This document shows, one piece after another, positions 22,985 through 24,469 of a stretch of 36,397 nucleotides of DNA. Below the pieces are notes generated by a model. That model worked only from the letters and a program-made list of their open reading frames with translations. It ran no database searches and was not told where the DNA came from. Origin of the DNA: a virus; UHGV virus genome UHGV-1376481. The stretch is one strand, 5' to 3'. A program made the translations under genes and the position numbers. The number at the start of each line of letters is the position of its first letter. Position 1 is the stretch's first letter.

Positions 22985-23013
22985 TTTACAAGATGTTTAT
23001 TTAAGTAGATAAT
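22985..23013 (+). promoter_or_regulatory. sigma-70-like promoter TTTACA-17-GATAAT for the accessory peptidase unit
   Basis: -35 at 22985-22990 and -10 at 23008-23013. GTG start at 23037. Confidence 0.45.
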
Positions 23014-23036
23014 AAAAGAAAAAAGCAGGTGAAATT

Positions 23037-24245
23037 GTGACAGCAGAAATTGGTATTATGAATAAAAGTGGAATCGTGTTAGCTTCAGATTCAGCATCTA
23101 CGATTGGAGATAGCAAAGTATATAATACTGCAAAAAAATTATTTACTTTGGATTCCATGCATTCTGTAGGTATCATGATATATGGTAATGCTGAATTTAA
23201 TGGTATTCCTTGGGAAATAATCATTACTCAATATAAGAAAAGCATTGGTAGTTCTGTTTTTAATACTTTGGAAGAATACGCGGATAATTTTATAGAATTT
23301 GTCAAAACAGCATCTTTTATTAGAAGTGAACAGACCGAGCAAGAACAAATGATTGGGGTTTTTCAAAAAATAATTTCAGGTTTATTTGAGAGTATAGAAG
23401 TAGATATTAACTTTTTAATAAGCCAAGGTACACAAATAGACAAAGATGTCCTAGTGAAGTTATTACAAACAAAAATGAATACCAATTTGTCTCAACAGTC
23501 CCAGACATTCATTTTAGATATTGAAAAGGCGTTATTTCTTAGTAACTATGGAGAAATATTAAAAGATATTCTTAATAGTATTTCTACAATGGAAGGTGTT
23601 TCAGAAGCTATATCAGAGGAAATTCAAAGTTACGTTTATGAAATTATAATTAGAGACGATGTTTATTCTTCCCCTACAGGAATAGTTATAGCAGGATATG
23701 GAAGAATGGATATTTTCCCTAAACTATATTCTTATAATATGTTTGGATTTGTTATGAATATTCTGAAATACTCAGAATATGAAAGTGCTCAAATAGGAAA
23801 TGACAATGGTTCATTAAGATCTACTATATTACCATTTGCTCAGTCTGATGTGGTAAATACTGTAGTTCAAGGGGTAGATCCACAAATTACTAATTATCTG
23901 TCGAGTCAAGTCGATAGTTTTGACGATAACGGAAAAAATACCTATATTAATATTATAAAGAATATTTCAGAGTTTCAACAAAATCAATTCATATTTCCGT
24001 TACTAAACATGATTGCTTTACTCCCAGTTGAAGAAACAGCAATTATCGCAGAGACTTTATTAAATTTAACCAGTTTTAAACGAAAATATACTACTTCTGT
24101 AGAAACAGTAGGTGGCCCAATTGATGTTTTAGCTATTACACCTAATGATGGCCCTATTTGGATTAAAAGAAAACATTATTTTGATATTGATAATAATATT
24201 GGATACAGATTGCGAAAGGAGAGAGCGAATGATTACAATAATTAA
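23037..24245 (+). CDS. HslV/20S-proteasome-beta-like Ntn threonine peptidase, enlarged (402 aa), accessory (moron) gene
   Basis: GTG start followed by Thr. The N-terminus aligns position-for-position with E. coli HslV at Thr1, Asp17, Thr21, Gly23, Lys32-Lys33 and Gly49-x-Ala-Asp/Glu. The C-terminal GGPIDVLAITPNDG resembles the proteasome-beta SGGxIDVAVItkdG motif. The gene is very AT-rich relative to its neighbours. Confidence 0.6.
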   Translation: MTAEIGIMNKSGIVLASDSASTIGDSKVYNTAKKLFTLDSMHSVGIMIYGNAEFNGIPWEIIITQYKKSIGSSVFNTLEEYADNFIEFVKTASFIRSEQTEQEQMIGVFQKIISGLFESIEVDINFLISQGTQIDKDVLVKLLQTKMNTNLSQQSQTFILDIEKALFLSNYGEILKDILNSISTMEGVSEAISEEIQSYVYEIIIRDDVYSSPTGIVIAGYGRMDIFPKLYSYNMFGFVMNILKYSEYESAQIGNDNGSLRSTILPFAQSDVVNTVVQGVDPQITNYLSSQVDSFDDNGKNTYINIIKNISEFQQNQFIFPLLNMIALLPVEETAIIAETLLNLTSFKRKYTTSVETVGGPIDVLAITPNDGPIWIKRKHYFDIDNNIGYRLRKERANDYNN

Positions 24246-24399
24246 ACCTCAGGAAAAATCCCCTGTTTTGAAATTTAATGAGAGCAATCTAGCCCATAAT
24301 AAAATGAGTATAACTGATACAGTATTTGATGTAATGGTTGAGCAACAAAAAAAAATTAATAATAACAATAGACAAAGAAAAGAAATTAACCAATATTAA
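24229..24399 (+). CDS. small basic protein (56 aa), translationally coupled to the peptidase gene
   Basis: ATG 24229 after AAGGAGAG, overlapping the last 17 nt of the upstream gene. Low-complexity basic C-terminus (NNNNRQRKEINQY). Confidence 0.4.
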   Translation: MITIIKPQEKSPVLKFNESNLAHNKMSITDTVFDVMVEQQKKINNNNRQRKEINQY

Positions 24400-24437
24400 T
24401 GTTTTTTCTGTTGCGTTTTTTGCAGTCATAATTTAAA

Positions 24438-24469
24438 ACCTCGCTCAATCTTGGGCGAGGTCTTTTTTT
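24438..24469 (+). terminator. rho-independent terminator closing the peptidase unit
   Basis: ACCTCGC-(10 nt)-GCGAGGT followed by TCTTTTTTT. Confidence 0.65.

Follow-up and report, generated by a model that had tools for sequence, protein, structure and literature searches.

In this work, we analyze a two-gene unit in the UHGV virus genome UHGV-1376481, a stretch of DNA of 36,397 nucleotides (hereafter, the window) which reads as a temperate Enterococcus faecium siphophage. The unit is situated between the lysis genes and a tRNA gene and consists of open reading frame (ORF) A, encoding a protein of 402 residues, and of the much shorter ORF B, which overlaps its end. We find that A is very probably a Thr1 hydrolase of the proteasome family, that A and B form, with comparably high confidence, a dedicated pair and that this pair is, in all likelihood, dispensable mobile cargo. 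What appears to be new here is the conserved two-gene architecture, together with the behavior of the pair as prophage and satellite cargo replacing toxin-antitoxin (TA) modules. A first-pass annotation of the window had not recognized a phage-borne proteasome-like peptidase with a small basic partner as a described defence or anti-defence system. The protein itself, however, is not without precedent: its family was very probably catalogued in 2021 as PMI-4, phage members included (PMC8665760).

Protein A and the proteasome fold

The first-pass annotation had aligned the N-terminal part of A residue by residue with HslV, and this register stands. Namely, in an ungapped comparison with HslV of E. 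coli K-12, 11 of 53 positions are identical (T1, V13, A15, D17, T21, G23, K32, K33, L37, G49 and A51, with E52 opposite D52), as against a mean of 3.6 for shuffled sequences (p=0.0005; BLASTP E=0.009). In a multiple alignment of 41 homologues of A, sharing between 35 and 88% identity, the residues T2, D18 and K34 as numbered from Met1 are invariant, and it is these that correspond to Thr1, Asp17 and Lys33, whose proposed alignment is thereby confirmed. Equally invariant are the segments AGYG at 219-222 (its Tyr nearly so), PFAQ at 266-269 (its Pro nearly so) and TVGGPxD at 357-363. What is more, the best sequence match in the PDB of a profile derived from this alignment is the beta subunit of Thermoplasma acidophilum, with which the N-terminus of A is in register, T1 to T1. 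The C-terminal motif of A, GGPIDVLAITPNDG, aligns with SGGMIDVAVITRKDG of the same subunit (VGGPIDVL versus SGGMIDVA), which bears out the resemblance to a proteasome-beta strand that had been noted earlier for this part of the protein. As for the second shell of the active site, as read from the alignments, AGYG (219-222) stands where GSG, with Ser129, is expected, ETVGG (356-360) stands where DxxSGG is expected, and there are two candidates, G45 and G50, for the equivalent of the oxyanion Gly47.

The AlphaFold2 (AF2) model of A has a mean predicted local distance difference test (pLDDT) score of 85.5 and a predicted template modeling (pTM) score of 0.82. A Foldseek search with this model returned 199 matches in the PDB at E<=1e-3, and the 50 listed are all proteasome subunits or Anbu. 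The alpha-beta-beta-alpha sandwich that characterizes proteasome subunits is found in A, with the following succession of elements, as assigned by DSSP to the AF2 model and presumed to correspond to the canonical ones:

Residues 4-49: strands S1-S5
Residues 59-91: helices H1 and H2 (59-70 and 78-91)
Residues 98-205: five-helix insertion (the insertion as a whole spanning about 92-210)
Residues 214-268: strands S6-S9
Residues 270-278: helix H3
Residues 282-328: second insertion, helical (about 282-330)
Residues 331-352: helix H4
Residues 362-377: strands S10-S11
Residues 388-401: helix H5

Residues 20-37 consist of strands only, with no insertion between S3 and S4. According to this model, A is a proteasome-beta-type N-terminal nucleophile (Ntn) hydrolase that is doubled in size through two helical insertions.

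Profile matches to A homologues begin at residue 1 in nearly all of the best 150 of 6450 representative clusters and, consequently, A is taken to have no propeptide. Methionine aminopeptidases remove the initiator Met when it precedes Thr, and Met excision would be expected to expose Thr1 of A. The protein is under purifying selection: the ratio of nonsynonymous to synonymous substitution rates (dN/dS) equals 0.147 overall and 0.047 in the core, while it rises to 0.21-0.27 in the insertions, where most of the amino-acid differences are located. As a separate observation, two near-identical metagenomic copies of A (L180 4701-5999 and L181 1151-2449) differ at residue 2, reading MPTEI and MTTEI, respectively. 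The MPTEI copy, which would be without the Thr1 nucleophile in its usual position, may stem from sequencing or assembly or else represent an inactivated gene.

A small partner gene across the family

For a survey of the surroundings of A, loci were drawn from GenBank phages, 185,579 species genomes and IMG/VR, and dereplication of A at 90% identity left 108 of them; as a partner, we counted any ORF of 38-95 amino acids on the same strand that starts between -70 and +60 nt from the stop codon of A. Such an ORF is present downstream of A in 97 of the 101 non-redundant loci having room for it, from bacteria and archaea as well as from phages and satellites, and in 83 of the 101 it has both an ATG start and a Shine-Dalgarno (SD) sequence. 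When the same finder is applied to the stops of neighboring genes or to random positions, any ORF is found in 34-37% of cases and one with ATG and SD in 6-9%. The earlier question of whether homologues of A are always followed by a small ORF can thus be answered: they nearly always are. The median partner is 61 residues long, with a gap of -4 nt to A and a net charge of +5.

In particular, 49 of the partners belong to one family recognizable by a hidden Markov model (HMM), with a basic N-terminus, the motif [FY]xS[IM]xE[FY]E[KR]x[FY][FL]P, a variable charged linker and the motif DPxxLGxxLAxxSLxxI. The AF2 model of this main family (pLDDT 82) has three helices behind an N-terminus that is predicted to be disordered. 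It has no Pfam model and no name, and a Pfam search with ten partner proteins came back empty. A database search with the partner profile retrieved 91 unnamed proteins, nearly all of them 57-65 residues long, and in the reverse direction, starting from partner homologues, an A gene was found to end 1-2 nt upstream in four of four places. The partners of other lineages keep size and position, their sequences having diverged beyond recognition; a gammaproteobacterial group is marked by two FF motifs and a group from Bacilli by FFN[LIV]P. There is no recurrent third gene, as among the 147 Pfam families encountered in 140 neighbors none occurs more than three times. In the enterotoxigenic E. coli (ETEC) strain ETEC-2265 (NZ_CP023346.1), a 49-residue ORF following the A homologue (L172 5409-5558) is unannotated in RefSeq, and partners systematically missed in this way may be the reason why the pairing has gone unreported.

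Layout and local signals of the unit

In the window, the unit and its boundaries are arranged in the following way:

22928-22944, strand not assigned: GC-rich hairpin GCTCCTC-GTT-GAGGAGC directly 3' of the endolysin stop codon, at the upstream boundary of the unit
22985-23013, plus strand: sigma-70-like promoter candidate TTTACA-17-GATAAT, matching 10 of 12 consensus positions
23037-24245, plus strand: ORF A, GTG start, 402 amino acids (from the ORF list)
24229-24399, plus strand: ORF B, ATG start, 56 amino acids, hydrophilic (from the ORF list; RefSeq WP_002347084.1)
24438-24469, plus strand: intrinsic terminator closing the A-B unit (hairpin at 24438-24461), with a 10-bp stem including 6 GC pairs, a 4-nt loop and T7

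The two genes overlap by 17 nt and B is preceded by an SD sequence of its own, AAAGGAGAG; the GTG-started gene, the overlap, the SD-equipped small gene and the terminator are all located where the first-pass annotation had placed them. An alternative start of B is the upstream ATG at 24145, from which the frame is open over 24145-24399, giving 84 amino acids and a 101-nt overlap with A. The SD-preceded ATG at 24229, which agrees with the gene calls of both RefSeq and metagenomes, is the more likely start. With a net charge of +3, B is only mildly basic, which tones down its earlier description as a small basic protein.

Terminators of the class that closes the unit are enriched (6 observed, 1.0 expected), and the stem is preserved in a diverged, 91%-identical cassette (prophage L169) despite altered loop and stem bases. 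Both promoter hexamers are identical in this same cassette, and it is this conservation, rather than statistical support, on which the call of a candidate promoter rests. The hairpin at the upstream boundary reads GCCCCCC...GAGGGGC in L169, with two compensatory pairs keeping the stem. It is terminator-like on the minus strand only; lacking a T-run on the plus strand, it may let late-operon transcription read through. This hairpin might mark the 3' end of an mRNA, stabilize a transcript or terminate transcription in both directions. Scans of the unit for Rfam families and repeats found a tRNA only and no meaningful repeats. Finally, the GC content of A-B is 29.6%, that of the window as a whole being 35.4% and that of the endolysin gene 39.2%. 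The unit is, therefore, more AT-rich than the neighboring lysis gene, as had been remarked earlier, but it is only the fourth lowest in GC among 39 ORFs, with the integrase and the PD-Lambda-1-like gene described below among those lower still.

Cargo site and mobility

The interval that houses the unit is bounded by two features:

21912-22922, plus strand: amidase endolysin, PF01510 (Amidase_2; Pfam), the left flank of the cargo hot spot
24654-24727, plus strand: tRNA-Met (ARAGORN, Rfam), the right flank of the cargo hot spot

Sister phages keep the 3' end of the endolysin gene and the tRNA as flanks and vary between them. Namely, Enterococcus phage 4995_1 has nothing in this interval, EH-TP1 has a RelE/ParE-XRE-SecB toxin-antitoxin-chaperone module, and vB_ElaS_B1578 has a SecB gene between two hypothetical ones. 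The earlier notion of an accessory unit in a cargo hot spot is, in other words, supported by sister phages that carry other cargo, or none, between the same flanks.

The pair is not restricted to this phage. Identical or near-identical A proteins occur in E. faecium, and in E. faecium prophages that have a tyrosine integrase, the endolysin gene is followed by an A of 88% identity together with an identical B. One and the same A protein of E. gallinarum follows the endolysin in two unrelated prophages. Streptococcus Javan prophages and phage satellites carry A at their ends, in Javan85 directly after the endolysin, and lambdoid prophages of Providencia and ETEC have it in the gap from Q to the lysis genes. 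The gene, which 9 of the 5426 complete E. coli genomes contain, runs in that species antisense to the late operon; a Porphyromonas copy is found among head and neck genes. The location at prophage ends, about which the first-pass annotation had asked, is thus observed. The families met most often among 129 neighbors in viral loci, namely Q-like antiterminators, CI-like repressors and endolysins, mark classic moron positions. Chromosomal copies of A are mostly outside prophages and have heterogeneous neighborhoods: some adjoin a type I restriction-modification S subunit together with SIR2 and DUF87, some adjoin HicAB and some are near DrmMI or AbiEii-like genes, while a few are on large rhizobial plasmids.

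An E. faecium 'plasmid', pA4694_P2 (NZ_CP059741.1, L177; 41,241 bp, circular, typed as non-mobilizable), has an A that is 99.8% identical, B and the same recombinase, and it is probably no true plasmid but a circularized copy of the window phage. Its interval from B to the recombinase holds a DUF5960 gene as well as three additional small genes that the window lacks; in their sizes, these genes are similar to the EH-TP1 toxin-antitoxin-chaperone module.

Relation to known families and systems

In 2021, Fuchs, Alva and Lupas (Bioinformatics) described 22 new families of prokaryotic proteasome homologues, with no function assigned (PMC8665760). One of these is PMI-4 ('proteasome homolog with multiple insertions'; representative HDY66466.1). 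Its members are extended at two places, after H1/H2 and between H3/H4, and not at S3/S4, and the family comprised 501 sequences of the nr database from most bacterial phyla, Euryarchaeota and phages, with no informative genomic context or co-occurrence reported (PMC8665760). A shares with PMI-4 the Thr1/Asp17/Lys33 core, both insertion sites, the absence of an S3/S4 insertion and the lack of an AAA+ partner, and the distribution that we observe (at least 522 genome stretches, among them ones from Methanosaeta and Methanomicrobiales, 195 IMG/VR stretches and the 6450 representative clusters) is of a similar breadth. The assignment of A to PMI-4, as judged from the described architecture and distribution, is therefore probable. 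What sets the copies studied here apart is the near-universal small downstream partner and, in phages, their position in cargo hot spots. Insertions at these two sites were argued to clash with ring and double-ring assembly (PMC8665760), which makes it likely that the quaternary structure of A differs from that of the proteasome, Anbu and BPH.

The remaining relatives of A are more distant. HslV (ClpQ) has 176 residues, as opposed to the 402 residues of A with its two helical insertions, and in E. coli K-12 it adjoins hslU, whereas A has no adjacent AAA+ gene in the window. No AAA+ unfoldase is encoded anywhere in the window, and none is found in the 25 most frequent Pfam families among the 140 neighbors of homologues, which agrees with the earlier statement that A is not the housekeeping ClpQ; an ordinary ClpQ/HslV is ruled out by size, insertions and missing HslU. 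In contrast to the 20S proteasome beta subunit, Anbu and BPH, A has neither an alpha-subunit gene nor a propeptide, and it has AGYG in place of GSG (Ser129) and VGG in place of SGG (Ser169). Connectase, an archaeal monomeric proteasome homologue and specific protein ligase, lacks H1/H2 and has a two-helix insertion at S3/S4, whereas A retains H1-H4 (with H1 and H2 read at 59-70 and 78-91) and has its insertions at other sites. Moreover, the connectase substrate MtrA is no small co-transcribed partner. PPH, like A, is a proteasome-like protein spread by tailed phages, but with about 140 residues and without H2 it belongs to the HslV/BPH-like group I, as compared with the 402 residues, four helices and two insertions of A. 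Finally, the RelE/ParE-XRE-SecB module of EH-TP1 occupies the same endolysin-to-tRNA interval on the same strand as an equally compact, translationally coupled cassette, and the organization of A-B as a compact, translationally coupled pair on mobile elements is shared with type II TA systems in general. The proteins themselves are, however, unrelated, and the size of A exceeds by far that of a typical type II toxin.

Other features of the window

Further genes in the vicinity of the unit are these:

21496-21915: holin, PF05105
25142-26494, minus strand: large serine recombinase
26560-27849, minus strand: PD-Lambda-1 homologue of 429 amino acids with DUF4041 and T5orf172/MUG113 (PADLOC E=1.3e-114; Pfam)

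The last of these sits between the serine integrase and a CI-like S24/HTH repressor, and it would appear, from these matches, that the lysogeny module of the window phage includes a homologue of PD-Lambda-1, which is catalogued as an anti-phage system of a single gene. Just beyond the 3' end of the recombinase gene, at 25088-25139, there is a 24-nt imperfect inverted repeat (83% complementary, with a 4-nt spacer), which is a possible attP core or recombinase site. Two Listeria phage records match the tRNA-Met region at 95.5% identity, and several Enterococcus phages have this region as well. It also recurs in a record under the name 'Acinetobacter phage D2SVT', whose match extends over about 9% of an 8-kb query (the endolysin and tRNA region) at 85.6% and which looks like a case of host misassignment or contamination.

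Discussion

How could one understand a pair of this kind? The explanation that we favor, if tentatively and at somewhat less than even confidence, is that A-B is an autonomous two-gene moron in which A serves as a protease effector of defined specificity and B regulates it, the two acting in a TA-like, abortive-infection or exclusion role. The analysis itself shows that A has the proteasome fold, that its catalytic residues are conserved and that it is under purifying selection, that A is paired with B in different domains of life, and that the cassette is mobile and occupies a cargo hot spot; an enzymatic activity of A, the part played by B, lysogenic expression and any defence phenotype are inferences on our side. 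The chromosomal copies beside type I restriction-modification, SIR2 and DUF87 genes, beside HicAB or near DrmMI or AbiEii-like genes, and the PD-Lambda-1 homologue of the window phage, also speak in favor of this explanation. A more far-reaching proposal, which is possible though less likely than not, is that A-B represents a new two-component anti-phage or addiction class found widely among bacteria and archaea, prophages and satellites, in which a non-compartmentalized threonine protease is restrained or targeted by a fast-evolving helical partner of 50-70 amino acids.

Proteasome-like proteases are classically self-compartmentalizing rings fed by AAA+ unfoldases. Since A has no propeptide and no AAA+ unfoldase, its control and specificity must come from the two insertions and from B. 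In mechanistic terms, removal of Met would expose Thr1, with Asp17 and Lys33 completing the active site of a catalytically competent threonine peptidase. B, a small, helical and basic protein, would be produced in a fixed proportion to A by translational coupling, and the insertions, together with B, would take the place of compartmentalization in controlling a potentially dangerous protease. A would then be a sequence-specific protease effector and B its cognate regulator, be it an antitoxin-like inhibitor or pseudosubstrate, or an adaptor or substrate. Should the balance between the two be upset, for instance when a phage enters the cell or when the element is lost, A might cleave cellular or phage proteins. 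This could produce TA-like behavior, abortive infection or superinfection exclusion, to the advantage of the element that carries the pair.

That said, a number of observations weigh against this picture. At the level of sequence profiles, PF00227 gives 14.1 bits on A as compared with a cut-off of 22.4 (E=0.037, residues 5-40 only) and TIGR03634, the archaeal beta subunit, gives 15.6 as compared with a cut-off of 224 (E=0.009), both below threshold, while the PHROG 'HslV family' phrog_1040 matches at E=0.26 and the sole strong family match, at E=2e-140, is phrog_5990, of unknown function. A belongs with the proteasome at the level of the superfamily, by fold and active site, outside the Pfam family as now delimited. 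What is more, the changes in the second shell (GSG to AGYG, SGG to VGG) mean that the chemistry may differ. As regards B, the protein encoded in the window was missed both by phmmer and by an HMM of the Bacilli partners when searched against 5350 decoy ORFs, its similarity to the partners of 55%-identical A genes being visible by eye only, and for this reason we claim for it conservation of position alone. Two E. faecium variants differ by 1 nt in ORF B, which is too little for dN/dS, or coding selection on B, to be measured. As regards expression, promoter-like matches in the AT-rich region are no commoner than expected by chance (19 observed, 14.7 +/- 4.2 in shuffles); the promoter put forward by the first-pass annotation is, accordingly, present and conserved but lacks statistical support, and the unit may be expressed by read-through from the late operon instead of in the lysogen. 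Finally, as regards a function in defence, some A-B pairs stand alone amid housekeeping genes, for instance between suf and msrA or beside archaeal ribosomal genes, and most chromosomal neighbors are ordinary genes; the association with defence islands, about which the first-pass annotation had likewise asked, is anecdotal and unquantified. PADLOC-DB v2.0.0 (2023) has no model for A (the best matches, at E=0.0056 and 0.025, are unrelated and partial) and no match to B, and full-text searches of the literature on proteasome-like, HslV or Ntn proteins with phage defence or prophages found no functional or defence study. The role in defence, superinfection exclusion or abortive infection that was suggested by the first-pass annotation is, for these reasons, one that we, too, can only infer.

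Would a function outside of conflict explain the data equally well? One could imagine that A is a dedicated enzyme similar to connectase, which acts on a single specific motif, and that it cleaves or transfers B, or a peptide made from B, in the course of normal physiology or signalling, with phages merely spreading the pair. The occurrence of the pair in both bacteria and archaea, at times alone among housekeeping genes, is in line with this, and the family-1 motif of B, [FY]xS[IM]xE[FY]E[KR]x[FY][FL]P, could be a recognition site. However, such a motif should persist, and B in fact diverges fast; the window's B does not have the motif at all. Moreover, the prediction for B is a folded, helical protein, unlike a leader or core peptide of extended form. 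A signal peptide is missing, and no genes for modification or export lie nearby. The patchy, mobile distribution of the pair and the TA cargo that is swapped at the same phage site favor, instead, an accessory function in conflict, and we consider a purely processing role unlikely.

Two further explanations start from the phage itself, and both meet with the same difficulty, namely that sister phages, including the closest ones, do without A-B and lyse without it. We deem it quite improbable that A-B is an anti-defence or host-takeover protease, in which A, upon infection or induction, degrades immunity or regulatory proteins of the host and B is a targeting adaptor. Such a function would be compatible with the position of the pair in Firmicutes, where it ends the late (lysis) operon on the same strand, and with its frequency in phages and satellites (the 195 IMG/VR stretches), the more so as the lack of a canonical plus-strand terminator before A-B makes late expression in infection possible. 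Nevertheless, the E. coli gene is antisense to the late operon, many chromosomal copies, archaeal ones included, have no phage genes nearby, and satellites and prophage ends typically hold genes that act in the lysogen. Still further removed, and in our judgment highly improbable, is a function in lysis or virion maturation, such as the timing or processing of lysis proteins. Endolysins are indeed among the commonest neighbors in viral loci, as are Q antiterminators in proteobacterial ones, and A-B directly follows the endolysin gene both in the window and in Javan85. Yet, the gaps from lysis genes to attachment site and from Q to S are standard moron sites, the Porphyromonas copy lies among head and neck genes, and most chromosomal copies have no lysis genes nearby.

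Returning to the two-gene moron that we favor, what do these results mean for the family? They supply a gene context for what is probably the largest of the 22 function-less families of proteasome homologues, reveal a small coupled partner that is often missed by annotation, as by RefSeq in E. coli, and show that A-B travels as swappable cargo in places where toxin-antitoxin and defence genes usually sit. In this way, an orphan family becomes a concrete two-gene system, tractable in E. faecium lysogens and in ETEC lambdoid prophages. Should A-B prove to act in defence or addiction, the chemistry of threonine proteases would be added to the effector types known from prokaryotic immunity, and this would be the first function assigned to any insertion-bearing proteasome homologue, as well as an example of a proteasome fold that is regulated without a ring or an unfoldase.

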